Below, one piece after another: positions 3,506 to 49,700 of a DNA stretch of 64,000 nt. The notes below the pieces were generated by a model that made no database searches, was not told where the DNA came from, and saw nothing but the letters and a program-made list of their open reading frames with translations. The stretch's first letter is position 1. Each line of letters starts with the position of its first letter. The stretch lies in the NCBI RefSeq assembly GCF_030384885.1, contig NZ_CP128615.1; one strand, 5' to 3'. The stretch comes from Escherichia coli (lineage in GTDB: Bacteria > Pseudomonadota > Gammaproteobacteria > Enterobacterales > Enterobacteriaceae). The translations under genes and the position numbers were made by a program.

Positions 3506-3547
3506 TCCCGTAATAATTTCCGTGACGGAGACGACAGACATGAATGG

Positions 3548-3608
3548 GCTTTGTTGAATAAATCGAACTTTTGCTGAGTTGAAGGATCAGATCACGCATC
3601 CTCCCGAC
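3548..3608 (+). mobile_element. IS903-like (IS5 family) terminal fragment including IR GGCTTTGTTGAATAAATC
   Basis: matches the first ~61 bp of the intact IS903-like copy at 23903; homology stops where the IS3-family element begins. Confidence 0.65.
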
Positions 3609-3708
3609 TGGATTTGCCCCTATATTTCCAGACACCTGTTATCACTTAATGGAGTGACCCCGAGCCCGTAGACAAATCTGCCCTATAGTTTGAGCATAGG
3701 AGGAGTCT

Positions 3709-5941: not shown

Positions 5942-6325
5942 GGGCAGTCAGTATGGCAGTGATGACTGGCAGCGGTTCTGCCGGGCCAATAATCTGGTAC
6001 CGAGCATGAGCCGTCGCGGCAACTGCTGGGATAATGCAGTGGCAGAATCGTTCTTCAGTTCACTCAAAAAAGAGCGCATCAGGAAGCGGATATACAAAAC
6101 CCGGGACATGGCCCGGGCGGATATTTTCGATTATATTGAAGTGTTCTACAACCGGGCCCGGCGCCACAGTCATCTCGGCGGCGTCAGCCCGGAGGCCTTC
6201 GAAAAGGCCTCGCAGTGAGGACAGAAACTGTCTACCGGAGCGTGGTCACTCCACATTTAAAGAAACGAGCTTTGGTAAACATACCTGTAATGACTCCATA
6301 AAATGGCGCGTCAAACGACACCTAA

Positions 6326-8401
6326 TCAATTAACCCCAAGCGCCTTAAACACGGCATCGACGGGGTCTGCATAAAAGCTGATCTGGAATTTTGAGAACAA
6401 CTCAGCAGGAACCGTTGGAATATCTGAGGCTGAGGCCATTGGGAGCAAAATACGCTTTGCGCCACTGTCCATAGCTAACTGAAGACTGCCTGCAAGATCT
6501 TGAACAGGATTGACGACACCACCTAAAGTCATCTCACCCAAAACAACCATCTGCTCTTGAATCGGTCGGTTCATCAGAATTGAACAGAACGCAATTAATG
6601 CAGCGAGCGATGACTTTGTACTTGGCCCCGTATTGTGGAGCTCAACAACATGGAGGTGATACTCATGATCAGAAAACTTCGCCGACGCACTGATTCTATT
6701 CAGGTTACCTTTGAAATAATCAAAGCCAACACGCACAGCTTCTTTCGCTGCGGTATTCGAACCAAGGCCAGACACTGAGTGTTTACCAGAACCAGCCATC
6801 ATCTGGGTTTCATAGCGATATAACCCAAGCTGCCCAGTGCTTCCCTGAGTAACCAAGTGCACGACACCAGCGCGAGGTAAGCCCTCAGGAATTAGCTTGC
6901 TGCCACCTTGTTCCGGTACATTGATGAAGAATTCTTCTAATGAATCGTTATCGATGTAGCTAAAGTGCACATCAAAAAATTCCATTCCGCCAAGCTTTTT
7001 CAATTGCTCTTTGACTCTACGTCTAGTTTCCAGCGCATAGGTCAGGCAGGCTCTTACATCATCTTTTGTGTACTGTGCGTCGGGGTGTAGTAGCTTTAAC
7101 AAGCCCGAAACAGTTCTGCGTACAGCAATTACATCACGCTGATTAAGGTTATTACCGAGTTTGAAGAACTTATCGATAGCATCCGCAAAACTTCTTTTGC
7201 GCATTTCACGCATGTATTCAGCAAGATAGTCTGTGATTAATCCGTAACTATTGGTGAAAAACTCAGGACGCATCTTCGGTATTTCCCATCCAGGAATATA
7301 GGAATGGAAACGGTCAAAAAAAGCAGTGTCAATCATGGCTTCAGGAAAAGGTGCCAACAGATGACTGGTCTTCACCAGTGTCTCAACGCTTTGATTGATG
7401 TTACCGACGAATACCATGGAAGCCTTCGCTTCGATTGAATCACGACCACGGGCAAAAGACCCTGACGCCATATAATCTTTCATTATTTGGACGCCGTCTT
7501 TGTCTTTAAAGTTAATACCCGCTACTTCATCAAAGGCGACAACATCCCACATTCCGACCAACCCAACTTGGCGCGAGCTCATGTTATAGAACAAGTTCGC
7601 CACAGTTGTTTGTCCGCCCGAGACAAGCAATGAGTTTGGTGAGCACTCCTTGTAGACATGGCTTTTACCTGTCCCTCTTGGTCCGAGCTCACAAACGTTG
7701 TAGTTGTTTTCAACGAATGGGATCATACGAGTGATAAGATGCCATTTCACCCGATGCTCTAAGTTGGTTGGCTCCATACCCACGGAACGAAGCAACACAT
7801 CCATCCACTGATCGGTACTAAAATGTCTTCTGGTTGAAAACACCTCATCCATGTTCATGGACGGCATTTGTATCGGTTTTAAACTCATAATGGAGAAAGG
7901 TGATGTCTTCTGACCTTCCTCAAAGAAATACTGGACGGTAATAATGCACCAGATGCCGCCAGTTAATAATTTTTCGTTGTCTTGTACTATTTTGGTCGGT
8001 ACAAGGGCATCCTTGATACCCAGGTTCGACAACGCAGCTTCATAGACGTCTTTTTTCTGGTTGAGCTTAACGCTTACTTTGTCGATGATTTTAAACGTGC
8101 CGCGTTCACGGATCAGTGACTTCACTTTCTCCGCTTCATCTGGTCGGACATAGTTCTCAGCCAAGATTTTTTTTACATTATCAAGGCCTTGCATTACAAC
8201 TTCGTCGTCATCGGACGCACAATACATGCCTAGTAAATACTCAAGCACATAGACAGGGACGTTAGCGCCTTCTTTCAATTGCTTTGTCAGATCTTTTCGA
8301 ACGACACGGCCTTTAAAATATTGGTTGAGCAATGCGTCTAAATCGGCGCTTTGCATCTGATTTTTTTCGTCTTTATGATCTTGTGAAAAATCAGTTGTCA
8401 T
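6326..8401 (-). CDS. brxL: BREX BrxL (Lon-like protease domain protein)
   Basis: 691-aa ORF, last gene of the BREX operon; P-loop GPRGTGKSH and Lon-like C-terminus. Confidence 0.85.
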   Translation of the reverse strand: MTTDFSQDHKDEKNQMQSADLDALLNQYFKGRVVRKDLTKQLKEGANVPVYVLEYLLGMYCASDDDEVVMQGLDNVKKILAENYVRPDEAEKVKSLIRERGTFKIIDKVSVKLNQKKDVYEAALSNLGIKDALVPTKIVQDNEKLLTGGIWCIITVQYFFEEGQKTSPFSIMSLKPIQMPSMNMDEVFSTRRHFSTDQWMDVLLRSVGMEPTNLEHRVKWHLITRMIPFVENNYNVCELGPRGTGKSHVYKECSPNSLLVSGGQTTVANLFYNMSSRQVGLVGMWDVVAFDEVAGINFKDKDGVQIMKDYMASGSFARGRDSIEAKASMVFVGNINQSVETLVKTSHLLAPFPEAMIDTAFFDRFHSYIPGWEIPKMRPEFFTNSYGLITDYLAEYMREMRKRSFADAIDKFFKLGNNLNQRDVIAVRRTVSGLLKLLHPDAQYTKDDVRACLTYALETRRRVKEQLKKLGGMEFFDVHFSYIDNDSLEEFFINVPEQGGSKLIPEGLPRAGVVHLVTQGSTGQLGLYRYETQMMAGSGKHSVSGLGSNTAAKEAVRVGFDYFKGNLNRISASAKFSDHEYHLHVVELHNTGPSTKSSLAALIAFCSILMNRPIQEQMVVLGEMTLGGVVNPVQDLAGSLQLAMDSGAKRILLPMASASDIPTVPAELFSKFQISFYADPVDAVFKALGVN

Positions 8402-22961: not shown

Positions 22962-23383
22962 CCTCACGCATACAACCGGGCAGTGACGTCATTGTTTGCG
23001 CGGAAATGGACGAACAGTGGGGTTATGTCGGCGCTAAATCACGCCAGCGCTGGTTGTTTTACGCGTATGACAGGATACGGAGGACGGTTGTGGCGCACGT
23101 ATTCGGTGAACGCACGTTGTCCACGCTGGAGCGTCTTCTGGGCCTGCTGTCGGCCTTTGAGGTCGTGGTATGGATGACGGATGGCTGGCCGCTTTATGAA
23201 TCACGCCTGAAGGGAGAACTGCACGTTATCAGCAAGCGATATAAGCAGCGCATTGAGCGGCATAACCTGAATCTGAGGCAGCATCTGTCAAGGCTGGGCA
23301 GGAAGTCACTGTCGTTCTCAAAATCGGTGGCGCTGCATGACAAAGTCATCGGGCATTATCTGAACATAAAACACTATCAGTAA
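22880..23383 (+). CDS. insB: IS1 InsB (expressed as InsAB fusion by frameshifting)
   Basis: 167-aa [29 protein letters not shown]... Confidence 0.85.
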
Positions 23384-23590
23384 GTTGGAGTCATTACCTT
23401 CTTTGCCGCCGGACATTGTCCGGCGCAACACCAAACCGGTCTGGCGGGCTGAGCCAATCCCGCAGGCAAATTCAGCCCTTACCGGATGGCTCAGCCCCCT
23501 ACTCATTGGAATTGGATATTCAACTTTCAGGGGCTACTGCGCCAGACTTCAGTCTTTAAAGTGATTGACTTAGCGCCTGGCACACTCAAT

Positions 23591-23902
23591 TTATTTAGGT
23601 AGCGGGCCTAATTGCACCCCATCAGGATAATACTTCCAGCCATCGCGAATTTTGACATTTTCATCCCACGGAAGTTTGTATTCGCCATTGGCAAGATCGC
23701 GCACCCAGGTCAGGTAATTCTCGCGTTCGCCTCCCGGTTTGCCGACATAGCCCCGGCAGCCAAGGTTGAAAATATTGTTTTCCAACGCCCAGTTTTCACG
23801 CGCTTTATCCACCAGGCGCGGGAACAGCTCTGCGGTAACAATTTCCCATGGGTTGCGGTGCCCCTGCTGAATGACGTTACCGTCATAATTGCAGACCGTA
23901 CC
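23591..23902 (-). pseudogene. 3' fragment of an unidentified gene, N-terminally truncated by IS903
   Basis: C-terminal ORF ...[58 protein letters not shown] abuts the IS903 IR at 23903. Confidence 0.4.
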
Positions 23903-24959
23903 GGCTTTGTTGAATAAATCGAACTTTTGCTGAGTTGAAGGATCAGATCACGCATCCTCCCGACAACACAGACCATTCCGTGGCAAAGCAAAAGTTCAGA
24001 ATCACCAACTGGTCCACCTACAACAAAGCTCTCATCAACCGTGGCTCCCTCACTTTCTGGCTGGATGATGGGGCGATTCAGGCCTGGTATGAGTCGGCAA
24101 CGCCTTCATCACGGGGAAGGCCCCAGCGCTATTCTGACCTTGCCATCACGACTGTGCTGGTCATTAAACGCGTATTCAGGCTGACCCTGCGCGCTGCGCA
24201 GGGCTTTATTGATTCCATTTTTACACTGATGAATGTTCCGTTGCGCTGCCCGGATTACAGCTGTGTCAGCAGGCGGGCAAAGTCGGTTAACGTCAGTTTC
24301 AAAACGTTCACCCGGGGTGAAATCGCGCATCTGGTGATTGATTCCACCGGGCTGAAGGTCTTTGGTGAAGGCGAGTGGAAAGTCAAAAAGCATGGCCAGG
24401 AACGCCGTCGTATATGGCGAAAGTTGCATCTGGCAGTTGACAGCAACACACATGAAATCATCTGTGCAGACCTGTCGCTGAACAATGTGACGGACTCAGA
24501 AGCCTTCCCGGGTCTTATCCGGCAGACTCACAGAAAAATCAGGGCAGCATCGGCAGACGGCGCTTACGACACCCGGCTCTGTCACGATGAACTGCGGCGT
24601 AAGAAAATCAGCGCGCTTATCCCTCCCCGAAAAGGTGCGGGTTACTGGCCCGGTGAATATGCAGACCGTAACCGTGCAGTGGCTAATCAGCGAATGACCG
24701 GGAGTAATGCGCGGTGGAAATGGACAACAGATTACAACCGTCGCTCGATAGCGGAAACGGCGATGTACCGGGTAAAACAGCTGTTCGGGGGTTCACTGAC
24801 GCTGCGTGACTACGATGGTCAGGTTGCGGAGGCTATGGCCCTGGTACGAGCGCTGAACAAAATGACGAAAGCAGGTATGCCTGAAAGCGTGCGTATTGCC
24901 TGAAAACACAACCCGCTACGGGGGAGACTTACCCGAAATCTGATTTATTCAACAAAGCC
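23903..24959 (+). mobile_element. IS903-like (IS5 family) copy 1, 1057 bp, intact
   Basis: 18-bp IRs GGCTTTGTTGAATAAATC at both ends; no 9-bp target duplication. Confidence 0.9.
23935..24903 (+). CDS. IS903-like DDE transposase
   Basis: 322-aa ORF ...[28 protein letters not shown]... Confidence 0.9.
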
Positions 24960-25112
24960 AGATGGAATAGCCCCGCTCGGTGATTTGGCGGACAGCTTCT
25001 TCCTTAAATTCAGGGGTAAAACGTGGTGTGCCCATAGACTATGACCTGCTCCCCGTTGATTAGTACACCCCGATGTTAGTAATGTCTTCATAAGCCACAT
25101 GAGGACATCCCC

Positions 25113-25624: not shown

Positions 25625-25873
25625 TGATGCGGACTACGACGTGCGTTTGGTCCAGGACTGCTGCTACGACCCGGATCGGGATGCCCACGAAGCTCTGTTG
25701 CGTTCCGGGTTCGGCGGACGTGTACAGGTCGTGTAATTTTCGGGCCTCGCATGATCGCGGCCATAGCCGCAGGTGGATTGGTGCGAGGCAGGGCCAGTCC
25801 AAGTCAGGGTGCGGTCATCGCGGCGCCTGCAACTCTCAAAAACCCATCGCCGTAGCGGAGGTCTTGTAATCGC

Positions 25874-26758
25874 ATGTCATTACGCACGCCCGATTTATTG
25901 TTCACAGCGATAGCACCTGCCATTTGGGGCAGCACCTACATTGTCACCACCCAATACCTGCCGAACTTCTCACCGATGACGGTCGCGATGCTGCGGGCGT
26001 TGCCGGCGGGTTTATTGCTCGTGATGATCGTCCGACAGATTCCAACGGGAATCTGGTGGATGCGCATCTTCATCCTCGGCGCACTTAATATTTCGCTATT
26101 CTGGAGCTTGTTGTTTATTTCGGTCTACCGCCTGCCGGGCGGGGTCGCGGCGACGGTAGGCGCTGTGCAGCCGCTGATGGTCGTGTTCATCTCTGCCGCT
26201 CTGCTAGGTAGCCCGATACGATTGATGGCGGTCCTGGGGGCTATTTGCGGAACTGCGGGCGTGGCGCTGTTGGTGTTGACACCAAACGCAGCGCTAGATC
26301 CTGTCGGCGTCGCAGCGGGCCTGGCGGGGGCGGTTTCCATGGCGTTCGGAACCGTGCTGACCCGCAAGTGGCAACCTCCCGTGCCTCTGCTCACCTTTAC
26401 CGCCTGGCAACTGGCGGCCGGAGGACTTCTGCTCGTTCCAGTAGCTTTAGTGTTTGATCCGCCAATCCCGATGCCTACAGGAACCAATGTTCTCGGCCTG
26501 GCGTGGCTCGGCCTGATCGGAGCGGGTTTAACCTACTTCCTTTGGTTCCGGGGGATCTCGCGACTCGAACCTACAGTTGTTTCCTTACTGGGCTTTCTCA
26601 GCCCGGGGACCGCCGTGTTGCTAGGATGGTTGTTCTTGGATCAGACGCTGAGTGCGCTTCAAATCATCGGCGTCCTGCTCGTGATCGGGAGTATCTGGCT
26701 GGGCCAACGTTCCAACCGCACTCCTAGGGCGCGTATAGCTTGCCGGAAGTCGCCTTGA
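25874..26758 (+). CDS. EamA/DMT-family transporter (PecM-like)
   Basis: 294-aa multi-TM ORF adjacent to tetA(A), as in Tn1721. Confidence 0.8.
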   Translation: MSLRTPDLLFTAIAPAIWGSTYIVTTQYLPNFSPMTVAMLRALPAGLLLVMIVRQIPTGIWWMRIFILGALNISLFWSLLFISVYRLPGGVAATVGAVQPLMVVFISAALLGSPIRLMAVLGAICGTAGVALLVLTPNAALDPVGVAAGLAGAVSMAFGTVLTRKWQPPVPLLTFTAWQLAAGGLLLVPVALVFDPPIPMPTGTNVLGLAWLGLIGAGLTYFLWFRGISRLEPTVVSLLGFLSPGTAVLLGWLFLDQTLSALQIIGVLLVIGSIWLGQRSNRTPRARIACRKSP

Positions 26759-26789: not shown

Positions 26790-27989
26790 TCAGCGATCGG
26801 CTCGTTGCCCTGCGCCGCTCCAAAGCCCGCGACGCAGCGCCGGCAGGCAGAGCAAGTAGAGGGCAGCGCCTGCAATCCATGCCCACCCGTTCCACGTTGT
26901 TATAGAAGCCGCATAGATCGCCGTGAAGAGGAGGGGTCCGACGATCGAGGTCAGGCTGGTGAGCGCCGCCAGTGAGCCTTGCAGCTGCCCCTGACGTTCC
27001 TCATCCACCTGCCTGGACAACATTGCTTGCAGCGCCGGCATTCCGATGCCACCCGAAGCAAGCAGGACCATGATCGGGAACGCCATCCATCCCCGTGTCG
27101 CGAAGGCAAGCAGGATGTAGCCTGTGCCGTCGGCAATCATTCCGAGCATGAGTGCCCGCCTTTCGCCGAGCCGGGCGGCTACAGGGCCGGTGATCATTGC
27201 CTGGGCGAGTGAATGCAGAATGCCAAATGCGGCAAGCGAAATGCCGATCGTGGTCGCGTCCCAGTGAAAGCGATCCTCGCCGAAAATGACCCAAAGCGCG
27301 GCCGGCACCTGTCCGACAAGTTGCATGATGAAGAAGACCGCCATCAGGGCGGCGACGACGGTCATGCCCCGGGCCCACCGGAACGAAGCGAGCGGGTTGA
27401 GAGCCTCCCGGCGTAACGGCCGGCGTTCGCCTTTGTGCGACTCCGGCAAAAGGAAACAGCCCGTCAGGAAATTGAGGCCGTTCAAGGCTGCCGCGGCGAA
27501 GAACGGAGCGTGGGGGGAGAAACCGCCCATCAGCCCACCGAGCACAGGTCCCGCGACCATCCCGAACCCGAAACAGGCGCTCATGAAGCCGAAGTGCCGC
27601 GCGCGCTCATCGCCATCAGTGATATCGGCAATATAAGCGCCGGCTACCGCCCCAGTCGCCCCGGTGATGCCGGCCACGATCCGCCCGATATAGAGAACCC
27701 AAAGGAAAGGCGCCGTCGCCATGATGGCGTAGTCGACAGCAGCGCCGGCCAGCGAGACGAGCAAGACCGGCCGCCGCCCGAAACGATCCGACAGCGCGCC
27801 CAGCACAGGTGCGCAGGCAAATTGCATCAACGCATACAGCGCCAGCAGAATGCCATAGTGGGCGGTGACGTCGTTCGAGTGAACCAGATCGCGCAGGAGG
27901 CCCGGCAGCACCGGCATAATCAGGCCGATGCCGACAGCGTCGAGCGCGACAGTGCTCAGAATTACGATCAGGGGTCTGTTGGGTTTCAC
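26790..27989 (-). CDS. tetA: tetracycline efflux MFS transporter TetA(A)
   Basis: 399 aa from GTG start (VKPNRPLIVILSTVALDAVGIGLIMPVLPGLL...); the ORF-track start at 28064 is an upstream extension. Confidence 0.9.
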   Translation of the reverse strand: MKPNRPLIVILSTVALDAVGIGLIMPVLPGLLRDLVHSNDVTAHYGILLALYALMQFACAPVLGALSDRFGRRPVLLVSLAGAAVDYAIMATAPFLWVLYIGRIVAGITGATGAVAGAYIADITDGDERARHFGFMSACFGFGMVAGPVLGGLMGGFSPHAPFFAAAALNGLNFLTGCFLLPESHKGERRPLRREALNPLASFRWARGMTVVAALMAVFFIMQLVGQVPAALWVIFGEDRFHWDATTIGISLAAFGILHSLAQAMITGPVAARLGERRALMLGMIADGTGYILLAFATRGWMAFPIMVLLASGGIGMPALQAMLSRQVDEERQGQLQGSLAALTSLTSIVGPLLFTAIYAASITTWNGWAWIAGAALYLLCLPALRRGLWSGAGQRADR

Positions 27990-28094
27990 GTCTGGCCTCC
28001 GGACCAGCCTCCGCTGGTCCGATTGAACGCGCGGATTCTTTATCACTGATAAGTTGGTGGACATATTATGTTTATCAGTGATAAAGTGTCAAGC

Positions 28095-32046: not shown

Positions 32047-32607
32047 TCAGTCGTCCGTGCGGAGGTACTGGTAGAGGGTTTCCCGGCTGATGTTGAACTC
32101 GCGGGCAAGCTGCGCCTTGGGCTCGCCGGCCGTCGCTCGCTGCCGCAGGGTAGCAGCCTGCTCATCGGACAGGGCTTTCTTGCGGCCCCGGTACGCGCCA
32201 CGCTGCTTGGCCAAGGCGATGCCCTCACGCTGCCGCTCGCGGATCAGGGCGCGCTCGAACTCAGCGAAGGCCCCCATCACCGACAGCATCAGGTTGGCCA
32301 TCGGCGAGTCCTCGCCAGTGAACACCAGGCCCTCCTTCAGGAACTCGATGCGCACGCCGCGCTGAGTCAGCTTCTGTACCAAGCGACGCAGGTCATCGAG
32401 GTTGCGGGCCAGCCGATCCATGCTGTGCACCACCACTGTATCGCCTTCGCGGACGAAGCTCAGCAGCGCTTCGAGCTGGGGGCGCTGGGTGTCCTTGCCC
32501 GATGCCTTGTCGGTGAACACCTTGCTCACCTGGGTTTGTTCCAGCTGGCGTTCCGGGTTCTGGTCAAAGCTGCTGACCCGGACGTAGCCGATGCGGTGCC
32601 CCTGCAC
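32047..32607 (-). CDS. tnpR: serine resolvase TnpR
   Basis: 186-aa ORF MQGHRIGYVRVSSFDQNPERQ... with catalytic Ser and C-terminal HTH. Confidence 0.9.
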   Translation of the reverse strand: MQGHRIGYVRVSSFDQNPERQLEQTQVSKVFTDKASGKDTQRPQLEALLSFVREGDTVVVHSMDRLARNLDDLRRLVQKLTQRGVRIEFLKEGLVFTGEDSPMANLMLSVMGAFAEFERALIRERQREGIALAKQRGAYRGRKKALSDEQAATLRQRATAGEPKAQLAREFNISRETLYQYLRTDD

Positions 32608-32800
32608 GATGTCTCCTTGGTTGAAGGCGGCTTAAGTGCACTTTCTGTTCCGTTGTGCCTCAAAGCCCATTTCTGTCAGGCTGAAATCTATAACCTTCGC
32701 GGGCATGTGTCAAAAAATGGGAAAGCAGACTCTATTCTGACGAAGCGGCGCGCCCTGCCTGACATCAAGTTAGGGTATAGCCTAGATTGACATGCGCGAT
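32608..32800. promoter_or_regulatory. probable res site / tnpR promoter region
   Basis: AT-rich intergenic region between tnpR and mcp, by position only. Confidence 0.4.
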
Positions 32801-32915
32801 GCAACCCTTAACTTGCTTGCACCTATCGTTTCCATGCTAGCTTTATCGTAACGCTCAAGAAATTGGGCTTAATGCCGAAAACAATAAAATAAAACAGCCA
32901 ACCCTTGAGGTTCTT

Positions 32916-34493
32916 ATGCGCCAGAATTTACCAGTGACGGGTCGAAACTTAGAACTCCCAAAAGATGCCAATATTCTTTCGACTACCTCCCCTCAAAGCC
33001 ATATCACGTACGTTAATCCTGACTTCATTAAAATCAGTGGTTTCACTGAGGAAGAACTATTAGGCCAGCCTCACAACATCGTAAGACACCCAGATATGCC
33101 GCCTGCTGCATTTGAGCATATGTGGAGTACATTAAAATCTGGCCGCTCATGGATGGGGCTAGTAAAAAATCGCTGTAAAAATGGCGACCACTATTGGGTA
33201 AGTGCTTATGTAACGCCAATAGCTAAGAATGGTTCGATTGTTGAATACCAGTCTGTAAGGACCAAGCCTGAACCTGAGCAGGTTTTGGCTGCGGAAAAAT
33301 TATATGCTCAATTGAGAAGCGGGAAGGCCGCGAGGCCGAAATTGGCTGCTAGCTTTTCCGTGAAAATACTCTTGCTCATATGGGGTAGTATTATATCAAG
33401 CGCAATGGCTGCCGGCATGCTTACTGATACATCAATAAGCAGCTTATTGTTAGCCACTTTAATGTCAGGAAGCTTAAGCTCTGTTAGTGTTTTGGCTATT
33501 CTCTCTCCTCTTGGAAGACTGGTTGAAAGAGCCAGGAATATTTCCAATAACCCATTAAGTCAATCCCTCTACACTGGGCGCACCGATGAGTTTGGCCAAA
33601 TAGAGTTTGCTTTACGAATGATGCAAGCTGAAACAGGCGCCATAGTAGGTCGCATAGGTGATGCATCAAATCGGCTTAGCGAACACACCCGAGGCCTACT
33701 AAAGGATATTGAGTCAAGCAATGTACTTACAGTTGAGCAGCAGGCAGAGACAGATCAAATAGCAACGGCAGTAAACCAAATGGTGGCAAGCATTCAAGAG
33801 GTTGCGAGCAATGCACAGCATGCTGCAGATGCGGCCGGAAGAGCAGACACTGAGACGGCATCTGGCCAGCGTCTGGTAGCCCACACAAGCCAGTCAATCA
33901 CTGCCCTTGAAGGTGAAATTAGGCAAGCCACTCAGGTTATTCATGAGCTTGAAGGTCAAAGTAACGAGATATCAAAAGTTCTTGACGTTATACGAGGGAT
34001 CGCCGAGCAAACGAATTTGTTGGCACTCAACGCAGCAATTGAGGCCGCGCGTGCTGGTGAGCAGGGGCGTGGTTTTGCTGTTGTCGCCGATGAGGTTCGC
34101 AGTCTTGCTGCTCGCACACAGCAATCGACAACGGATATTCAAAGCATGATCAGCGCTCTACAAGAGCGAGCGCAATCCGCTGTTACAGTCATGGAGCAAA
34201 GTAGTCGGCAAGCGCACACGAGTGTAGCTCACGCAGAGGAAGCAGCTACAGCTCTTGATGGAATTGGCCAACGCGTTAACGAAATTACCGACATGAACGC
34301 GCAAATAGCGACTGCGGTCGAGCAGCAGGGAGCAGTAAGTGAAGACATAAACCGCAGTATTATCAATATACGCGATGCTGCTGATACCAATGTACAGACC
34401 GGGCAGAATAATTTGCAAAGTGCGAAATCTGTCGCTCAGTTAACTAGCGCTCTGAGCGAACTGGCAAAACAGTTTTGGGAAAAACGAGGATAA
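32916..34493 (+). CDS. methyl-accepting chemotaxis-like protein (Tn1721 orfI-type, PAS + MCP signalling domain)
   Basis: 525-aa ORF; PAS-like N-terminus, TM segment, MCP signalling repeats ([30 protein letters not shown]). Confidence 0.85.
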
Positions 34494-35147: not shown

Positions 35148-35666
35148 GAGCTCCCATCGCTGCGCGACGGGCCCCAACCGGAGAACCAAGTTAGTTACAG
35201 CATTCAGATGAAAATTCATCATAAAACCGGCGCCGGTTTGCCAGCCAGGAGCCCCTCCCCACCACTGAAAAGCGCCGCCGCCCCCGGCCGAAGGCCGGGA
35301 GTAGTGTCGCTTTTAATGATGGGTGTTGTAACTACTCTTCGTCATCTCTGTGAGTAGTGTCGCGGTAAGTTCTGGGATACACGCTCGTAAGCGGCCCTAA
35401 CGGCCCGCTAACGCGGAGATACGCCCCGACTGCGGCTGTCGCCTTGCCGGGACCACTCCGACCGCGTACAGAGGCATCTGAGCCGTTTTTAGCGGGTATA
35501 GCTTTGCAGGGAAGGGGGTGGGTGAGGCAGAACCTGTCAAAACAGCAGCCGGCTGCGCCGGGCGACGGCGCCATTTACCCGCAGTACTCCATTCAACTTC
35601 AGCTGGCGCCTCCATGCCGCTGACGCGGCATTATCTATACTTTAAGTCTGGCCACTGGAGGTAACC

Positions 35667-35751: not shown

Positions 35752-35912
35752 GGCTTTGTTGAATAAATCAGATTTCGGGTAAGTCTCCCCCGTAGCGGGT
35801 TGTGTTTTCAGGCAATACGCACGCTTTCAGGCATACCTGCTTTCGTCATTTTGTTCAGCGCTCGTACCAGGGCCATAGCGGGGTCGTTTGCGGGAGGGGG
35901 CGGAATCCTACG

Positions 35913-43486: not shown

Positions 43487-43857
43487 CTCAGCAAAAGTTC
43501 GATTTATTCAACAAAGCCCATTCAGTCCTCAATTTGTGCATTTTTTAAACGAAAAAAGGGTGTCTAATACGGTGAAATCATAGTATTACCAAAGTAATAA
43601 ATAAAAAGTTATTTAAATCAGTAATTTAGATTTGATTTGTAATACCTGGGTAATACCGCAGCATGGCTAAATTTTGTTTTTTTTCTTTTAAATCAGTGCG
43701 ATAGCGTGATTTATCACGCTGCGTTAGGTGTATAGCAGGTTAAGGGATAAAAAATCATCTTTTTTTGGTAGGGCGATCTCCGTAGGTTAAGGGGCATTTG
43801 GCTAAAAAGCGTCCTATTCTTTGATGGTCATGCTTGCATGACCATCTGAGCAACCAA

Positions 43858-44006
43858 AAACTACAGATAAACTACAGATAAACTACAAAAAACGTTTTGC
43901 CTTAGTGTTGTAAGACTACAAATAGACTACAATAAAACTACAAATAAACTACAAAAAACGTGACAGACTACAAATAGACTACAATAAAACTACAGATAAA
44001 CTACAA
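43858..44006. repeat. array of ~11-bp ACTACA(A/G)ATA direct repeats (iteron- or centromere-like)
   Basis: at least 12 copies of (A/G)ACTACA(A/G)AT(A) in 150 bp, preceded by a perfect palindrome GATGGTCATG-cttg-CATGACCATC at 43821-43846. Confidence 0.6.
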
Positions 44007-44066
44007 AACTCGATTGACCCCTTCTTACGAGTGTTGTAGAGTCATTTTCATACAACGGAGGGGGTT

Positions 44067-44246
44067 ATGAATAAACCAGCAGATCTGAAACCCCGCAACT
44101 TATCGGCTGCTGTCAGATTGCGCCTAAATGAAATCGAGAACTGGCTGGACAGAGGGCTAACGCGGCATGAAATTGCTGAAATCCTCGACAGCGAATACAG
44201 CTTTTCGGTAACAGCCAAAGGGCTTGAGATGGATGGCACTGTATAG
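44067..44246 (+). CDS. small hypothetical protein (59 aa), possible DNA-binding regulator
   Basis: strong RBS GGAGGGGG 6 bp upstream; MNKPADLKPRNLSAAVRLRLNEIENWLDRGLTRHEIAEILD...; below the ORF-track length cutoff. Confidence 0.45.
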   Translation: MNKPADLKPRNLSAAVRLRLNEIENWLDRGLTRHEIAEILDSEYSFSVTAKGLEMDGTV

Positions 44247-44465
44247 AACGCGGCAAAACCGAAAAAATGTATTGCACAATACGCATGATAAGAGTAGCGC
44301 GAAGGGTGCAGCGGAAAGTGTATTGCACAATACACAACCGTCTGAGCCTGAAGTGCAGGAAAGTAAAAAAGCAGAGAGTCCCGGCATTATTGATAAAGAA
44401 TTCTTCAAGAAAATCGGTGAGAATTTCGACCCTAAGAAGTTCAACAAAAAATTCTGAGGTGATTT

Positions 44466-44540
44466 ATGAAAGTAGCGGTAATTAATTACAGTGGCAGTGT
44501 TCGTAAAACCTTAATTTCATCTTACCTGTTAGCCCCGCGC
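44466..44540 (+). pseudogene. 5' fragment of a gene (MKVAVINYSGSVRKTLISSYLLAPR), truncated by IS903 copy 3
   Basis: RBS GAGGTGA then ATG; the N-terminus resembles the start of a ParA-like NTPase but the Walker A is not canonical. Confidence 0.35.
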
Positions 44541-45597
44541 GGCTTTGTTGAATAAATCAGATTTCGGGTAAGTCTCCCCCGTAGCGGGTTGTGTTTTCAG
44601 GCAATACGCACGCTTTCAGGCATACCTGCTTTCGTCATTTTGTTCAGCGCTCGTACCAGGGCCATAGCCTCTGCAACCTGACCATCGTAGTCACGCAGTG
44701 TCAGTGAACCTCCGAACAGCTGTTTTACCCGGTACATCGCCGTTTCCGCTATCGAGCGACGGTTGTAATCTGTTGTCCATTTCCACCGCGCATTACTCCC
44801 GGTCAGCCGCTGATTCGCAACAGCACGGTTACGGTCTGCATATTCACCGGGCCAGTAACCCGCGCCTTTTCGGGGCGGGATAAGCGCGCTGATTTTCTTA
44901 CGCCGCAGTTCATCGTGACAGAGTTGGGTGTCGTAAGCGCCGTCTGCCGATGCTGCCCTGATTTTTCTGTGAGTCTGCCGGATAAGACCCGGGAAGGCTT
45001 CTGAGTCCGTCACATTGTTCAGCGACAGGTTTGCACAGATGATTTCATGTGTGTTGCTGTCAACTGCCAGATGCAACTTTCGCCATATACGACGGCGTTC
45101 CTGGCCATGCTTTTTGACTTTCCATTCGCCTTCACCAAAGACCTTCAGCCCGGTGGAATCAATCACCAGATGCGCGATTTCACCCCGGGTGAACGTTTTG
45201 AAACTGACATTAACCGACTTTGCGCGCTTGCTGACACTGGTGTAATCCGGGCAGCGCAACGGAACATTCATCAGTGTAAAAATGGAATCAATAAAACCCT
45301 GTGCAGCCCGCAGGGTCAACCTGAACACGCGTTTAATGACCAGAACGGTGGTGATGGCGAGATCAGAATAGCGCTGAGGTCTTCCCCGTGATGAAGGCGT
45401 TGCCGACTCATACCAGGCCTGAATAGCTTCATCATCCAGCCAGAAAGTTATGGAGCCACGGTTGATGAGGGCTTTATTGTAGGTGGGCCAGTTGGTTATT
45501 TTGAACTTTTGCTTTGCCACGGAATGGTCTGCGTTGTCGGGAAGATGCGTGATCTGATCCTTCAACTCAGCAAAAGTTCGATTTATTCAACAAAGCC
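44541..45597 (-). mobile_element. IS903-like copy 3, 1057 bp, intact
   Basis: 18-bp IRs at both ends; same orientation as copy 2. Confidence 0.9.
44597..45565 (-). CDS. IS903-like DDE transposase
   Basis: 322-aa ORF nearly identical to copy 1. Confidence 0.9.
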   Translation of the reverse strand: MKDQITHLPDNADHSVAKQKFKITNWPTYNKALINRGSITFWLDDEAIQAWYESATPSSRGRPQRYSDLAITTVLVIKRVFRLTLRAAQGFIDSIFTLMNVPLRCPDYTSVSKRAKSVNVSFKTFTRGEIAHLVIDSTGLKVFGEGEWKVKKHGQERRRIWRKLHLAVDSNTHEIICANLSLNNVTDSEAFPGLIRQTHRKIRAASADGAYDTQLCHDELRRKKISALIPPRKGAGYWPGEYADRNRAVANQRLTGSNARWKWTTDYNRRSIAETAMYRVKQLFGGSLTLRDYDGQVAEAMALVRALNKMTKAGMPESVRIA

Positions 45598-46099
45598 GTC
45601 TGTGTTGTAAAATGGCGCCGAAAGCCCGGCGTAGCCGGTTGCCGGGCTATAAATTCTGCCACCCTACCCCCTGCCCTGATTAGCCTTAACTCGCGAACAG
45701 CAATGAAGAAGTCAAAGTAATCCCTTTTAACCCCGGTGAGCGGGCTTTACGGCGTTTACGACGTAAAGGGCGTGATTTCCGGGGCCTAAGCGGCGGCAGC
45801 TTGCTGCTGACGCTTAGGGGGATGTTCATCAACTATTTCAGCGACACCAGGGAACTTAACACGGTAGCTGCAAAGCCCTAATCCCGCTCACCGCCACGCA
45901 GCTGCCGTACGTCCCCCACGGGGGTGCGCAGTGCTGCGCGCGGGAACGGCGGCCCGTCTGCGGGACGCGGCGCCGTACTGCGCGTTAGCGGCCGCACGCG
46001 GCCGGTTACGGGGGACACTCCGCCATACGACCAGCGACCCGCTGAGCTGCACAATCCACAGATAACACAAGCTACATACATGTCGATATGGGAATCGGC

Positions 46100-46660
46100 C
46101 CACCTTGCCGGGCGCCGGTGCCGTGTGGAAATCCGCCCACCTTGCCGCGCGCCGGTGCCGTGTGGGAATCCGCCCACCTTGCCGCGCGCCGGTGCCGTGT
46201 GGGAATCCGCCCACCTTGCCGGGCGCCGGTGCTGTGTGGAAATCCGCCCACCTTACCGGGCGCCGGTGCTGTGTGGAAATCCGCCCATCTTGCCGGGCGC
46301 CGGTGCCGTGTGGGAATCCGCCCACCTTACCGGGCGCCGGTGCCGTGTGGGAATCCGCCCACCTTACCGGGCGCCGGTGCCGTGTGGGAATCCGCCCACC
46401 TTACCGGGCGCCGGTGCTGTGTGGAAATCCGCCCACCTTGCCGCGCGCCGGTGCCGTGTGGGAATCCGCCCACCTTGCCGCGCGCCGGTGCCGTGTGGGA
46501 ATCCGCCCACCTTGCCGGGCGCCGGTGCTGTGTGGAAATCCGCCCACCTTACCGGGCGCCGGTGCTGTGTGGAAATCCGCCCATCTTGCCGGGCGCCGGT
46601 GCCGTGTGGGAATCCGCCCACCTTACCGGGCGCCGGTGCTGTGTGGAAATCCGCCCATCT
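46100..46660. repeat. tandem array of about 15 copies of a 37-bp repeat (putative Rep_3 iterons)
   Basis: unit CTTGCCG(G/C)GCGCCGGTGC(C/T)GTGTGG(G/A)AATCCGCCCAC; lies downstream of the truncated repA fragment. Confidence 0.7.
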
Positions 46661-46708
46661 TCATGACAAAAATTTGTCAAATGACAGGCTCATGTGTGCT
46701 GATTTATG

Positions 46709-47011
46709 TCAGACGGGATTTTGCTTATCAATTATTGAGAACAGAAATTTTCCTGAATCATCAATACTATACTTAGCAAGTAAAGGTGTTTTCTCATTTA
46801 TCTGCTTGAGTGCAGGATCAAGGAAAGATCGTTTCAACTCTGCCAAGTTCTTCTGCTGGGATTCCGGTAAGACGAAACGGTCATTTAACCAAGCATGAGT
46901 AGTAACCCATAAGCCTGAAGATTTGAATTGAGCAAGACTTTCATAAAGGCGGATCGTCCGGGGATTTCGAAGACTGCCACAATCGCGGAGCGAGTAGGTG
47001 GTGAACTGGTT
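46709..47011 (-). pseudogene. Rep_3-family replication initiator, C-terminal ~100 codons only (truncated by IS1)
   Basis: translation ...NQFTTYSLRDCGSLRNPRTIRLYESLAQFKSSGLWVTTHAWL... aligns with the C-terminus of the intact RepA at 54593-55459. Confidence 0.8.
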
Positions 47012-47026
47012 GGTAATGACTCCAAC

Positions 47027-47530
47027 TTACTGATAGTGTTTTATGTTCAGATAATGCCCGATGACTTTGTCATGCAGCGCCACCGATTTTGAGAACGACA
47101 GTGACTTCCTGCCCAGCCTTGCCAGATGCTGCCTCAGATTCTGGTTATGCCGCTCAATTCGCTGCGTATATCGCTTGCTGATAACGTGCAGTTCTCCCTT
47201 CAGGCGGGATTCATAAAGCGGCCAGCCATCCGTCATCCATACCACGACCTCAAAGGCCGACAGCAGGCCCGGAAGACGCTCCAGCGTGGCCAGAGTACGC
47301 TCACCAAAGACGCGTGCCACCACCGTCCTGCACATCCTGCCATAGGCGTAAAATAACCAGCGCTGACGTGATTTAGCCCCGACGTAGCCCCACTGTTCGT
47401 CCATTTCCGCGCAGACAATGACGTCACTGCCCGGTTGTATGCGTGAGGTTACCGACTGCGGTCTGAGTTTTTTAAGTGACGTAAAATCGTGTTGAGGCCA
47501 ACGCCCATAATGCGGGCGGTTGCCCGGCAT
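47027..47530 (-). CDS. insB: IS1 InsB
   Basis: 167-aa ORF. Confidence 0.85.
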
Positions 47531-47724
47531 CCAACGCCATTCATGGCCATATCAATGATTTTCTGGTGCGTACCGGGCTGAGAGGCGGTGTAAGTGAACT
47601 GTAGCTGCCATGTTTTACGGCAGTGAGAGCAGAGATAGCGCTGATGTCCGGCAGTACTTTTACCGTTACGCACCACGCCTTCAGTAGCTGAGCAGGAGGG
47701 ACAACTGATGGAGATGGAAGCCAC
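47449..47724 (-). CDS. insA: IS1 InsA
   Basis: 91-aa [14 protein letters not shown]... Confidence 0.85.
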
Positions 47725-47789
47725 TGGAGCACCTCAAAGACACCATCGTACACTAAATCAGTAAGTTGGCACCATTATCCGGCAGGCGA

Positions 47790-49700
47790 TCTGGATTATC
47801 GTCACGCTGTTAAATATGTCGCGGTAGGGATACCCGTTACCGGATACCCCCCGCACAGATCCCGGCGTGCGCGATTTACGCACCGGGCTCCTGCCTCGGG
47901 TGTCTGGCGGTGAACCGCTCCACAGGCCATGGATGAAGAACCCGAACCCTTGGTAGCCATGCGGCTGCCAGTTTGTTTGCTTTCGTCCAGGTCGTATCAT
48001 CCTTCTGGCTCCTGCGCCTGAGCGCCCGGCGCCAGAGGTTTGTTACGTGTGTCCTGAACTTCTGCATGGTGGGGAAGTTGCCCGGTACCGAGTGATAGTT
48101 CAGGTATCCCTGAACCACTCTCCTGAGCCATTTTCCCTGTTCGGGGATTGAGTAATGCCAGCGCCTTCGCAGACCGTCTTTGATGGCTTTCAGAGTTGCC
48201 GTCATCCGATCCCGGCGGGTCTTTCGTATCAGCATGAACCTGCCGTTGCGATCTTTCCCGCTGATGTGCGTGAACCCGAGGAAGTTGAACGTTTCTGGTT
48301 TGCCTTTTCCCCTGATGGCACGGTTTTCGGCAGCGAAGCGGCCGAACTCCATCAGACGGGTTTTCTCCGGGTGAACCGTGAGTCCGAACTCCCTCAGTCT
48401 GCGCTGCATGGCTATACGGAAGCGCCGGGCATCGTATCGTTTGTCGAACCCGATGACGATGTCATCGGCGTATCTGACCATTACCACATTGCCTGTGGCA
48501 TAGCGACGTCGCCACTGATGCGCCCACAGATCGAAGACGTAGTGGAGGTATATGTTTGCCAGCAGCGGTGAGATGACCGCACCCTGTGGGGTGCCTTCCT
48601 CCGTTGCTCGCCATTGACCCTCCTCCAACGTCCCGGCTGTGAGCCACTTACGTATGAGCCTGATTACGCTCCGGTCGCCGATCCGATGCTCTGTGAACCT
48701 GATCAGCCATTCGTGGCTCACCCTGTCGAAGAACTGACTGATGTCGGCATCCAGTACCCAGTTTACGTTAGTGCGTACCAGCCCTGTGGCCAGTGCGTCC
48801 AGTGCATCGTGCTGGCTTCGCCCGGGTCTGAACCCGTATGAGAACCCCATAAAGTCGTTTTCATAGACTGCGTTCAGGATTTTCACCAGCGCATACTGGA
48901 CGATCTTGTCCTCCAGCGAGGCGATGCCGAGCGGGCGTTGTTTTCCATCCGCTTTTGGGATGTAGTGACGCCTGCCGGGCTGCGCCCTGTAGCTGCCCTA
49001 ATGTAGCCTCCGGTGCAGATCTGTTATGTTGTTCTTCATGTTTCCGGCGTAGTCCATCCACCTGATGCCATCCACTCCGGCGGCCGCTTTCCTGCTCAGG
49101 GAGAGGAATGCGGCTTCCAGTGCTTCGACTGTCAGCAGGTGGAACAATGCTGTAAACCGTTCTTTCTTCCGCTGCTTCGCAGCTTCCCGCACGCGTGACA
49201 GCCTCTGTGACATGCTTTCCCGGCTCTGTGTCCGGCGCATGTGTGGCTGTTCCGCGTTCCCCTTGGCCCCGCTCCTTCGCTCCACTGACTCCGCTCCTTT
49301 CGGGTTGTTCGCCTGCTTCGCCGCTACTATGAGCGAGTCCGACTTCTCCTCTCCGTACATCACCGGCTATGACTCCTCGTCTTCCCGGTGCGGGCCGTCT
49401 CCGACACTGGCAGATGGTCAGAGGGGAGATCTCCCGGTTCCCGCGTAGAGATCGTATTGACATGCCAGGGTCTCAGACCCCGCCGGGTCCATGTGGCACT
49501 CGCAGTATCGCACCCTATGATGTTGCCTTCCGTTAACAGTACAACGTCGGCACCCGGTAATTTAATATACATTTCGTGGCTCAATGGCTGGCCTGTCAAC
49601 ACCCCTGTCAACGCTTCGCCCCATACCTCGCGGTATGCAACGCATGACTCGGGGACCTTGTGGATTGCTGGTCCTTCAATGGTCGGGGACTTTCACCCCT
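47790..49700 (-). mobile_element. bacterial group II intron (boundaries approximate)
   Basis: intron-encoded RT/maturase ORF; domain V-like hairpin in the reverse complement of 47845-47880; 5' boundary not pinned. Confidence 0.6.
47876..49363 (-). pseudogene. group II intron reverse transcriptase/maturase, interrupted by one in-frame TAG
   Basis: two same-frame ORFs (48998-49363 and 47876-48886) separated by a TAG at 48998-49000; RT motifs ...GVDGIRWMDY..., ...FSYGFRPGRSQHDAL..., ...YADDIVIG... Confidence 0.75.

Follow-up and report, generated by a model that had tools for sequence, protein, structure and literature searches.

The "G site" of plasmids R1 and R100 primes leading-strand synthesis ~400 bp downstream of oriR. 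A primase-only G site in this region was reportedly described by Masai and Arai in 1989, and Jiang et al. are said to have given its location as well, in 1993. A second kind of system is found in F and IncI1 plasmids, where the Frpo/ssi single-stranded-DNA promoters of the leading region form repeated non-coding hairpins; these are carried by the transferred strand and precede anti-defence operons that are expressed early (PMC12672017, PMC9849209). How leading-region genes come to be expressed early is an active question (PMC12672017). In the IncN plasmid R46, the repeats upstream of ccgAI, ardA, ccgD and ardB are the CUP elements of Delver and Belogurov (1997), as far as the citations of that work in PMC5371602 and PMC6289460 go. 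The function of the >400-bp CUP sequence was described in 2018 as not studied in detail (PMC6294495), and none of the papers that we searched links CUP to ssi signals. Near their replicon, IncN plasmids carry 37-bp repeats named IncN iterons (PMC9412624, PMC6052338). Such iterons, together with IS903B, IS1X3 and a repA remnant, have already been described as the "N region" of IncR plasmids (PMC9412624).

We analysed a 64,000-nt stretch of an Escherichia coli contig (NZ_CP128615.1), referred to here as the window. Comparison with plasmid sequences showed the segment 45598-46088 to be non-coding plasmid backbone, a truncated, chimeric copy of a hairpin-rich module family. Its hairpin cluster is genuine but ordinary: it consists of an IncN CUP repeat and an IncFII-type relative, of a kind already known. 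The whole segment is present in 758 PLSDB plasmids, and the IncR N region is its setting. The features discussed below are collected in Table 1.

Table 1 Positions of features in and around the segment, in window coordinates.
Feature	Position	Strand	Details
Second, independent module copy	35165-35660	-	IncFII(K)-type; b-c-d-e plus Ter-like site; blastn match to c1-d1
IncN oriT nic region	43721-43747		R46 27-mer, found once in the window; adjoins stbA
IS903B transposase ORF	44597-45565	-	
IS903B terminal inverted repeat	45580-45597		gatttattcaacaaagcc; left boundary of the module
Left half of segment	45598-45888		Corresponding module in its IncFII(K) version
Module c1	45614-45648	+	Overlapping hairpins CGCCG-aaagcc-CGGCG and CCGGC-gta-GCCGG, plus AGCCCGGC/GCCGGGCT
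Module d1	45674-45694	+	CCCTGATTAGCCTTAACTCGC; degenerate form of CCCTGC(A/T)AAGCC-ATA(A)CCCGC; aligned with R100 CCCTGCCAGACCATACCCGC
Long-range pairing	45734-45747 with 45880-45893		14 nt; 93% complementary
Left arm of long-range pairing	45734-45747	+	CGGTGAGCGGGCTT; part of the IncFII(K)-type half; found in L002 and L008, not in IncN copies
Hairpin H1 (module b2)	arms 45745-45755 / 45758-45768	+	CTTTACG-gcgtttacga-CGTAAAG, then GGCGTG; inverted-repeat search
Hairpin H2 (module c2)	16-nt arms 45785-45800 / 45803-45818	+	CCTAAGCGGCGGCAGC-tt-GCTGCTGACGCTTAGG (CCTAAGCG.../...CGCTTAGG); 88% complementary
Right half of segment	45868-46085		Distal part of IncN CUP repeat; native site between 37-bp iteron array and resP
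Module d2	45868-45887	+	CTGCAAAGCCCTAATCCCGC; joint of IncFII(K)-type left half and IncN CUP right half
Right arm of long-range pairing	45880-45893	+	AATCCCGCTCACCG; in the IncN half; present in pE109_IMP6
Module e, GC-rich multibranch fold	45898-46024	+	RNAalifold consensus, alignment A2
Hairpin CCCCC-ac-GGGGG	45913-45924		Inverted-repeat search
Module e helix	45921-45926 / 46019-46024	+	
Module e helix	45927-45931 / 45978-45982	+	CGCAG/CTGCG
Module e small hairpin	45948-45950 / 45956-45958	+	
Module e small hairpin	45960-45962 / 45971-45973	+	
Hairpin CGGCCG-cacg-CGGCCG	within 13-nt arms 45983-45995 / 45998-46010		
Module e imperfect palindrome	45984-45994 / 45999-46009	+	GTTAGCGGCCG / CGGCCGGTTAC
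Conserved distal CUP end	46050-46072	+	CACAATCCACAGATAACACAAGC; contains AATCCACAG
IncN iteron-I array	46089-46661		15.5 copies of 37 bp (TRF)
IncN repA 3' remnant	46709-47011	-	Stop codon 46709-46711; colinear with the repA end of pE109_IMP6
IS1X3	47012-47779	-	insA/insB ORFs; inverted repeat ggtaatgactccaactta starts at 47012; right end estimated from the 768-bp length of IS1

The mosaic make-up of the segment emerged from megablast, which split the query in two: positions 1-291 matched Klebsiella IncFII(K) plasmids at ~95% identity and positions 271-488 matched IncN1 plasmids at ~91%. Both this split and our alignments place the junction of the two halves inside the shared d motif, CTGCAAAGCC, and in alignments A1 and A2 the segment is colinear with its relatives. 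The right half has ~84% identity over ~210 bp to the distal part of every R46 CUP, and ~91% to the repA-adjacent copies of IncN1 plasmids. It aligns with the CUP of pKM101/R46 over its full length, including the terminal CACAATCCAC(A/G)GATAACACAA, and beside iteron I the segment stands where the repA-adjacent copy natively lies. Unlike a CUP, the segment has a middle part replaced by IncFII(K)-type sequence that resembles CUP in architecture only; the similarity of the left half to CUP is not at blast level, and the order of hairpins alone is held in common. The segment also lacks the 126-bp promoter-proximal part of a CUP, with its sigma-70 promoter (TTGACT-17-GATAAT in R46) and ArdK site, as does the repA-adjacent copy of R46, and it therefore controls no operon. 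To its left lies IS903, not a leading-region operon. GC content is 55% in 45600-45899 and 67% in 45800-46099. The statement in the earlier note that no ORF explains this region was borne out: none of the four overlapping ORFs has a Pfam match, and homologues of the region vary by 1-nt and further non-triplet indels, as expected of non-coding sequence. The "hypothetical proteins" annotated across the segment and the iterons in some records are artefacts, and the segment would best be labelled an IncN CUP-like/post-origin non-coding module.

The family to which both halves belong has a fixed order on the + strand, b-c-d-e. Module b is a hairpin ATGCCnn...nnGGCAT followed by GGA(A)GGCG; module c consists of one or more hairpins around CCGGCGTAGCCGG, usually with a CTG no more than 12 nt beyond; module d is CCCTGC(A/T)AAGCC-ATA(A)CCCGC; and module e is a multibranch fold, rich in GC, with the imperfect palindrome GTTAGCGG..CCGnTTAC at its end. 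We found this series just downstream of oriR in R100 (IncFII; modules b-c at about 90,400-90,520 of its record), past the origin in R64 (IncI1), just past oriR in IncFII(K) plasmids, in pLST424C-61, and in a second copy within the window (nhmmer E 9e-5; blastn E 1e-5 and 1e-3). That second copy, which we included in alignments A2 and A4, is itself a relic, flanked by an IS903 end and a Tn3-family fragment. In IncN1 plasmids the family lies past the 37-bp iteron-I array, and in pE109_IMP6 and R46 it follows directly after the array, downstream of repA. The order relative to the rep gene is identical in IncN, IncFII and IncI1. The distance from hairpin c to the CTG is at most 12 nt in R100, R64, the IncFII(K)-type locus L002, the 35.6-kb copy of the window and the R46 CUP, and the same applies to two of the three c-type hairpins (c2 and c3) of pLST424C-61. 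At least 5000 near-identical IncFII matches to the R100 module were found in PLSDB; three further loci (H127, H136 and H139) added no new diversity to the family.

IncN plasmids also carry duplicates of the module: each CUP repeat that precedes a leading-region operon (ardA, ardB, ccg) has one as its distal ~320 bp. In R46, the copy beside repA and the iterons (32767-33090) is 98% identical, in inverted orientation, to the repeats upstream of ccgAI, ardA, ccgD and ardB. The d motif was not found in the CUPs of the IncN2 plasmid p271A, and the link to the family is therefore one of IncN1 only. A useful by-product of these comparisons is that the CUP repeats, the repA-adjacent segment of IncN and the post-oriR region of IncFII, IncFII(K) and IncI1 plasmids come together as one family with conserved hairpins.

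In the window copy, c1 is homologous to the R100 hairpin that precedes TACTG (nhmmer, window against R100 over c1-d1, E 9e-5), and where c1 of its relatives reads TTACCTGG with CTG, the window has TTGCCGGG and the CTG is lost (compared with L002). We compared d1 with its counterpart in pLST424C-61 by eye. H1 stands in a b-type position, where MAFFT aligns it with the b hairpin of CUP; in pLST424C-61 it reads CTGTACG...CGTACAG, a compensatory T>G / A>C change. H2, in the c position in alignment A1, is the most stable local hairpin (-14.6 kcal/mol in a DNA-parameter fold). Module e of the window has a 12-nt deletion relative to IncN1 plasmids. The conserved distal CUP end in the segment (CACAATCCACAGATAACACAAGC) recurs in the repA-adjacent copy and in those R46 CUPs that precede ccgAI and ccgD. 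A candidate Ter site at 45603-45613 (TGTTGTAAAAT) was rejected by eye, since it has A in place of the critical C of GTTGTAAC and no such motif occurs in the homologue from Klebsiella.

Insertion sequences interrupt both the module and repA. The IS903B insertion splits the module family between hairpins b1 and c1; the uninterrupted form, with hairpin b1 on the left, is seen in pRHBSTW-00105_3 (L004, 3958-3985). On the other side, IS1X3 is annotated at the same site in pEFER, pKUN4843_1 and others. Because IS1X3 truncates repA and IS903B removes b1 plus anything further left, the module copy, read from these insertions, is a relic carried in the IncR N region, and the replicon is dead. As the mark of a dead IncN replicon inside mosaic resistance plasmids, IncR and others, the segment is relevant to replicon typing and to the reconstruction of IS-mediated rearrangements. 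The earlier note had suggested that the structure is associated with an origin and had proposed a comparison with intact iteron arrays. That comparison agrees with the suggestion: 37-bp repeats also follow repA in pE109_IMP6 and R46, the same sequence comes directly after the iteron-I array of these intact IncN1 plasmids, and homologues follow the R100 oriR and the R64 origin.

We then asked how far the pairing itself exceeds chance. All of the nested hairpins listed in the earlier note are present in the GC-rich region, and the whole region folds modestly better than dinucleotide shuffles: z = -2.93 for the + strand as ssDNA, and -1.95 (+ strand) and -1.67 (- strand) as RNA. It is conservation, not overall folding energy, that raises the structure above chance. 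Between IncN and IncFII-type copies, the helices of 45921-46024 keep 95.3% of cells paired, with compensatory change at 7 pairs, and the covariation of module e is 0.272, compared with 0.094 for shuffles (0/500) and no more than 0.082 for slid controls, covariation here being essentially between two deep clades, IncN and IncFII-type. Hairpin b is 98% paired, with 2 compensatory pairs. Alignments of the + and - strands, which MAFFT aligns differently, both yield a consensus fold, and the covariation is compatible with folding on either strand. The long-range pairing that encloses several local hairpins in the earlier note is indeed present (14 nt, 93% complementary), but as a signal it did not hold up. 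Its left arm is confined to IncFII(K)-type copies and its right arm to pE109-type IncN copies, the counterpart of the latter being AACCCAGCCCGCCG in R46 CUPs and CCCGCTTTCAGCC in IncFII types; judged from this distribution, the pairing is not conserved and is an accident of the chimera. The earlier reading overlooked the CUP copy, the two-lineage chimera and the origin of the long-range pairing as a by-product of it.

What might such a module do? By analogy with R1/R100, we infer that the favoured mechanism is a single-strand priming signal of the G-site type. This reading is based on position, orientation, conserved hairpins and the G-site literature on R1/R100. The + strand would turn single-stranded when helicase unwinds from the origin or when the transferred strand enters in conjugation; the hairpins would then fold and offer a start signal to the host primase DnaG (a G4-type ssi signal), and DNA synthesis would proceed leftwards, away from repA. 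R100 fits this picture: counted from the AT-rich end of oriR, the CTG that follows hairpin c is ~393 bp further on, and it belongs to the template strand for synthesis directed away from repA. In the window, the stem-loops on the template strand are c1, H1, H2 and module e, and compensatory changes occur among the conserved hairpins. With b1 gone and the CTG after c1 altered by mutation, residual priming from the window copy, if any, would come from the second unit, H1-H2-d2. Taken as a whole, the reading of this copy as a relic, chimeric CUP-type module from a family with a G4-type priming role seems to us evenly balanced between right and wrong.

The module shares with the repA4 region of R1/R100 (G site/ssiA) and with the ssi near the ColIb-P9/R64 origin the b-c-d-e order, the orientation to the rep gene and the conserved helices. 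Unlike in R1/R100, the IncN module is parted from repA by an iteron array rather than by oriR and a Ter site, and the window copy is without b1 and without the CTG after c1. Phage G4 oric likewise has hairpins on one strand 5' of a CTG start; the hairpin-TACTG of R100 resembles G4 hairpin I-TACTG, and the exact 10-mer CTGCAAAGCC at 45868-45877 is identical to the oric start region. However, CTGCAAAGCC lies 48 nt past the nearest hairpin, H2, in the window, whereas in G4 the distance is 3 nt. In each of 3 copies tested, the G4 primer template matched the + strand best at module c, with scores within the shuffle range. Smith-Waterman comparison of G4 oric with the window, R100 and pLST424C-61 was not significant (shuffles at least as good in 0.13-0.29), and blastn against 50,697 phage records gave chance matches alone (E >= 2).

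Conserved helices with compensatory change would fit RNA as well as single-stranded DNA, and G-U type pairs are tolerated. In transcripts that run in from neighbouring genes, the hairpins could serve, much as REP/BIME elements do, to insulate, to direct processing or to stabilise 3' ends. Such transcripts would come from the previous operon in the IncN leading region or, at the replicon, from resP and repA, which converge there. In keeping with this, the module is always placed between transcription units, be it resP (+) and repA (-) in IncN or successive leading-region operons in R46. Like REP/BIME, it has short, GC-rich, imperfect palindromes in intergenic mosaic arrays of variable number and order; unlike them, it is plasmid-borne, tied to replicon ends or leading regions, and built of a much longer unit. 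The RNA folding z-scores are weak, however, no Rfam family matches, no site resembling an intrinsic terminator occurs on either strand (0 sites in 45500-46800, against 2.0 expected in shuffles), and in IncFII and IncI1 the module lies past the origin, where no known transcript needs it. We consider an RNA-level role rather unlikely. The earlier note's idea of a structured noncoding RNA, taken as a gene in its own right within the disrupted replicon, meets the further difficulty that a scan of 45500-46800 found no promoter-like site; the search with the covariance models of Rfam 15, over 44000-48000 on both strands at E up to 10, gave 0 matches. We regard such a gene as very improbable, and the same holds for the oriT-like element that was proposed with it. 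Inverted repeats do lie beside a conserved GCGTTAG heptamer, which is also present in the IncN nic region, and carrier plasmids are often typed as mobilizable. That typing is explained by the real IncN oriT beside stbA, at the only occurrence of the R46 nic 27-mer in the window; nothing similar to this nic-region sequence was found in 45598-46088.

The hairpins could instead be a by-product of a cluster of double-stranded sites (for ArdK/ArdR, DnaA, IHF or a Tus-like protein) or of a homologous-recombination hot spot by which backbone modules are shuffled. It is known that CUPs are regulatory repeats under the control of ArdK (PMC5371602, PMC6289460) and that they serve as substrates for recombination (PMC3490853, PMC5371602), and the window copy is itself recombinant, joined in a shared motif. 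The GTTAGCGG..CCGnTTAC palindrome of module e is conserved in sequence as well as in pairing, and could equally be a double-stranded protein-binding site. Against this, the ArdK sites and promoter of a CUP belong to the promoter-proximal part that the window and the repA-adjacent copy of R46 lack, the module is common to replicons with unrelated regulators, and its stems change sequence yet stay complementary, which a sequence-specific site would not tolerate. Nor did the DnaA-box-like sequence AATCCACAG (46053-46061) of the earlier note keep its meaning: it matches at 7/9 positions and is the conserved end of CUP copies far from any origin. CAATCCACA (46051-46059) likewise agrees with the DnaA box TTATNCACA at 7/9 positions and lies in the repeat end common to leading-region CUPs. 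The strict box is absent from the region and matches in the window only at 55413 and 62428. We think it unlikely that double-stranded sites or recombination account for the module.

The priming reading could extend to the leading region. Tentatively, and with more doubt than confidence, the distal two-thirds of every IncN CUP may be, rather than a spacer or an operator, a duplicate of the replicon's post-origin priming region, with the G-site region of IncFII and IncI1 plasmids as its homologue. In the leading region of R46, every copy has this part on the transferred strand, directly 3' of the promoter of the CUP and of the anti-restriction operon; priming by DnaG would therefore make that promoter and operon the first to become duplex. 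If this is true, ardA, ardB and ccg would be expressed early by a "prime-then-transcribe" route instead of by single-stranded promoters of the Frpo type, as found in F and IncI1, and the window copy would be a disabled member. The two systems are alike in that the R46 CUP modules lie on the transferred (+) strand upstream of ardA and ardB. They differ in that Frpo rebuilds -35/-10 boxes in a long stem, whereas no such boxes occur in the GC-rich distal part of CUP, and the promoter of CUP is of the ordinary double-stranded kind. The window copy is now on the transferred strand, ~2 kb inside the leading region that starts from the IncN-type oriT, a place that it would owe to an IS903 rearrangement.

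The GC-rich hairpin cluster at 45700-46040 lies in a non-coding segment of plasmid backbone (45598-46088) that is, from its database matches, a mosaic of two parts. By megablast, query positions 1-291 of this segment (window 45598-45888) match more than 1000 Klebsiella plasmids at ~95% identity, and positions 271-488 (45868-46085) match IncN1 plasmids at ~91%. The parts meet in a motif common to both lineages, CTGCAAAGCC (45868-45877); the left side of the region has 55% GC and the right side 67%. A Klebsiella IncFII(K) plasmid (L002) carries the left part ~700 bp after repA ends, on the far side of a perfect DnaA box. The earlier note had proposed a comparison with intact iteron arrays, and equivalent sequence was indeed present in the IncN1 plasmid pE109_IMP6: the right part stands there as in the window, directly past the iteron array downstream of repA and just ahead of a convergent resolvase gene.

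A sensitive search placed the right part in up to four or five locations per IncN plasmid. In R46, the copy adjacent to the repA iterons (32767-33090) is 98% identical, in inverted orientation, to repeats at four sites, listed in the table. These repeats are the "conserved upstream repeats" (CUP) of Delver & Belogurov 1997, which mark the 5' ends of leading-region operons, their gene-proximal end carrying a promoter and an ArdK site (PMC5371602, PMC6289460). Judged by its sequence, the right part belongs to the IncN CUP repeats. Aligned with CUP copies, the window follows the distal part of the repeat as far as its conserved end, CACAATCCAC(A/G)GATAACACAA, with a 12-nt deletion relative to IncN1. 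The 126-bp gene-proximal part, which in R46 contains TTGACT-17-GATAAT on the - strand, is absent from the window and from the repA-adjacent copies. Because the match runs to the conserved end, AATCCACAG, previously likened to a DnaA box, is simply the repeat terminus: it agrees at seven of nine box positions, and the same terminus occurs in copies far from any origin. No strict DnaA box was found in the region. A PLSDB search returned 3165 matching records, 758 of which cover at least 80% of the 488-bp query, mostly at 99% identity or more; backbone repeats of this kind are already known, and hundreds of sequenced plasmids carry the cluster.

Features of the hairpin cluster, its surroundings and related loci (window positions unless a plasmid is named)
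Feature	Position	Strand	Remarks
Module b		+	hairpin ATGCCnn-loop-nnGGCAT, then GGA(A)GGCG
Module c		+	overlapping hairpins around CCGGCGTAGCCGG
Module d		+	CCCTGC(A/T)AAGCC-ATA(A)CCCGC
Module e		+	GC-rich multibranch region ending in imperfect palindrome GTTAGCGGnC...GnCCGnTTAC
Unit 1: c1; d1	45614-45648; 45674-45694		b1 hairpin removed by IS903
Unit 2: H1 (b type); H2 (c type); d2; e	45745-45768; 45785-45818; 45868-45887; 45898-46024		H1, H2: local hairpins
IS903B transposase	44597-45565	-	left neighbour; IS terminal repeat ends 45597
37-bp tandem (iteron) array	46089-46661		15.5 copies; right neighbour
37-bp iterons, pKUN4843_1 (L005)	5490-6500		~27 copies
37-bp iterons, pE109_IMP6 (L003)	3230-3660		~11-13 copies
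37-bp iterons, R46 record (L007)	32473-32768		~7 copies
IncN repA 3' remnant	stop codon 46709-46711	-	beyond array; cut by IS1, inverted repeat begins 47012
IncN-type transfer origin block	43501-44530		another IS903 end (43501-43518) at left limit
R46 oriT nic 27-mer, exact	43721-43747	+	then short direct repeats, stbA, stbB start; stbB cut by IS903 at ~44530
Second relic, IncFII(K) type, b-c-d-e	35165-35660 (to 35770)	-	Ter-like aatgctgtaactaa at ~35190-35205; IS903 inverted repeat 35753-35770
R46 repeat upstream of ccgAI	23209-23658
R46 repeat upstream of ardA	24550-24994
R46 repeat upstream of ccgD	25760-26202
R46 repeat upstream of ardB	27778-28009		shortened
Module e variant, pRHBSTW-00105_3 (L004)	4310-4385

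All of the pairings listed in the earlier note were found in place, and the cluster folds better than dinucleotide shuffles of itself, but by a modest margin (z -2.93 for the + strand as DNA, -1.95 as RNA, and -1.67 for the - strand as RNA). The long-range pairing (45734-45747 with 45880-45893) lies outside the conserved structure. IncFII(K)-type copies alone have its left arm and pE109-type IncN copies alone its right arm, so that the pairing exists only in the chimera of the two halves. A coding explanation was rightly set aside: ORFs overlapping the cluster had no Pfam match, and indels between homologues have lengths that are not multiples of three. Long ORFs across the iteron array into the cluster (45924-46898 on the + strand, 45878-46177 on the - strand and similar), likewise lacking Pfam matches, are repeat artefacts; some PLSDB records annotate a "hypothetical protein" under this match. 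The suggestion of a structured noncoding RNA fared poorly, with no Rfam match even at E up to 10 and neither a promoter nor an intrinsic terminator by consensus scans.

The hairpins belong to a wider family of ordered modules, b-c-d-e, whose order and orientation relative to the rep gene are constant in R100, R64, IncFII(K), pLST424C-61, a second relic in the window and all R46 CUPs. The series lies downstream of oriR and the Ter site in R100, downstream of the origin in R64 (IncI1), and in the distal part of every CUP in R46; it is present in the IncFII(K) plasmid and has additional b and c units in pLST424C-61. Window and R100 are colinear (c1-d1, nhmmer E 9e-5 and blastn 1e-5; palindrome in e, blastn 1e-3), and at least 5000 PLSDB records contain the R100-type module. 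In the consensus fold of module e, 95.3% of cells are paired and 7 of 24 pairs are compensatory (eight sequences of IncN and IncFII types, few independent lineages), with covariation of 0.272 versus 0.094 in shuffles (0/500) and at most 0.082 in slid controls. Hairpin b has 98.3% of cells paired and two compensatory pairs (nine sequences, again few independent lineages). Examples are CGCAG/CTGCG in IncN versus CGGAG/CTCCG in IncFII, within e, and the change of H1 from CTTTACG/CGTAAAG to CTGTACG/CGTACAG in pLST424C-61. Pair counts do not indicate the folding strand, because the - strand alignment also gives a consensus fold; on the + strand, G-T exceed A-C cells by 7 to 1, an excess biased by the structure-prediction procedure.

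We favour the reading that this family may act as a single-strand priming signal. Leading-strand synthesis in R1/R100 begins at a "G site", located ~400 bp downstream of oriR, where DnaG primase acts alone to make the primer. This site is similar to the phage G4 origin of complementary-strand synthesis, and the ColIb-P9 origin has a comparable single-strand initiation signal close by. In R100, the CTG after hairpin c lies ~393 bp past the AT-rich oriR end, on the strand templating synthesis away from repA, in the context GCCGG-TA-CTG compared with GTCCC-TA-CTG in G4; most family members have a CTG within 12 nt of hairpin c. The G4 primer template found its best + strand match on module c in three copies, with scores inside the shuffle range, and a blast search against phages gave no match; given both, we infer priming from position, orientation and the conserved hairpins. 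Of the earlier proposals, origin association is borne out by the positions in pE109_IMP6, R100 and R64, and single-strand initiation is possible. The + strand of R46 is the transferred strand by its IncN oriT nic region, and the leading-region CUPs carry b-c-d-e on it, 3' of the CUP promoter and operon. Synthesis primed there would cross both the promoter and the anti-restriction genes.

A role at the RNA level, as an insulator or 3'-end stabiliser, also fits a module with conserved helices between transcription units, although no terminator, Rfam match or transcript speaks for it. A double-stranded protein site or recombination hot spot would suit the history of CUP and the recombinant junction, but is difficult to reconcile with stems that alter sequence yet remain paired, and with a copy that lacks the ArdK-bearing part. 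The oriT-like role considered earlier is excluded, as the sole occurrence of the R46 nic 27-mer is outside the cluster. Relative to that 27-mer, the cluster is ~2 kb inside the leading region, on the strand that is transferred. Only the kinship of CUP with the post-oriR region, together with the priming hypothesis built on it, merits follow-up.

Annotated carriers typed as IncR include pEFER, pKUN4843_1 and an E. coli AR_0011 plasmid, in which the block is flanked by IS903B and IS1X3, then retA, umuDC, parAB and IncR repB. The transfer origin block probably explains the mobilizable typing of these IncR plasmids. The "N region" of the IncR plasmid pST1023 comprises IS903B, IS1X3 and an IncN repA remnant with its 37-bp iterons (PMC9412624), reported at 24.3 copies. 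Iteron number varies among otherwise identical regions, which could reflect real slippage or assembly collapse. IS903B (44530-45597) has unlike 9-bp flanks, gccccgcgc (44521-44529) and gtctgtgtt (45598-45606), and no target-site duplication; its junction with the cluster therefore arose through rearrangement, a deletion or inversion in which the element fused two unrelated IncN-derived fragments. Beyond the left part of the module in relatives, defence genes follow a WYL-domain regulator on the same strand as repA (BREX in pEFER, L001 1-3100; a DUF262 protein in the IncFII(K) plasmid, L002 1-2400), so that defence islands lie directly after the post-origin module.

The replicon in the window is dead, IS1 having cut its repA. 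After c1, the CTG is altered from TTACCTGG in L002 to TTGCCGGG, a change that incidentally creates an 8-bp inverted repeat (45623-45630 / 45641-45648). With repA cut, b1 lost to IS903, this CTG changed and the junction rearranged, we regard the locus as a relic, which may at most retain residual priming activity. The b1 hairpin is retained in the uninterrupted pRHBSTW-00105_3. The second relic of the family has an IS903 inverted repeat on one side and a Tn3-family transposase fragment on the other. Module e of pRHBSTW-00105_3 has lost an internal stretch between short GGCGCC repeats, and its palindrome is perfect, GTAACCGGCCGC-AC-GCGGCCGGTTAC, in place of the imperfect GTTAGCGGCCGC-AC-GCGGCCGGTTAC of the window; both changes resemble quasipalindrome (template-switch) correction.
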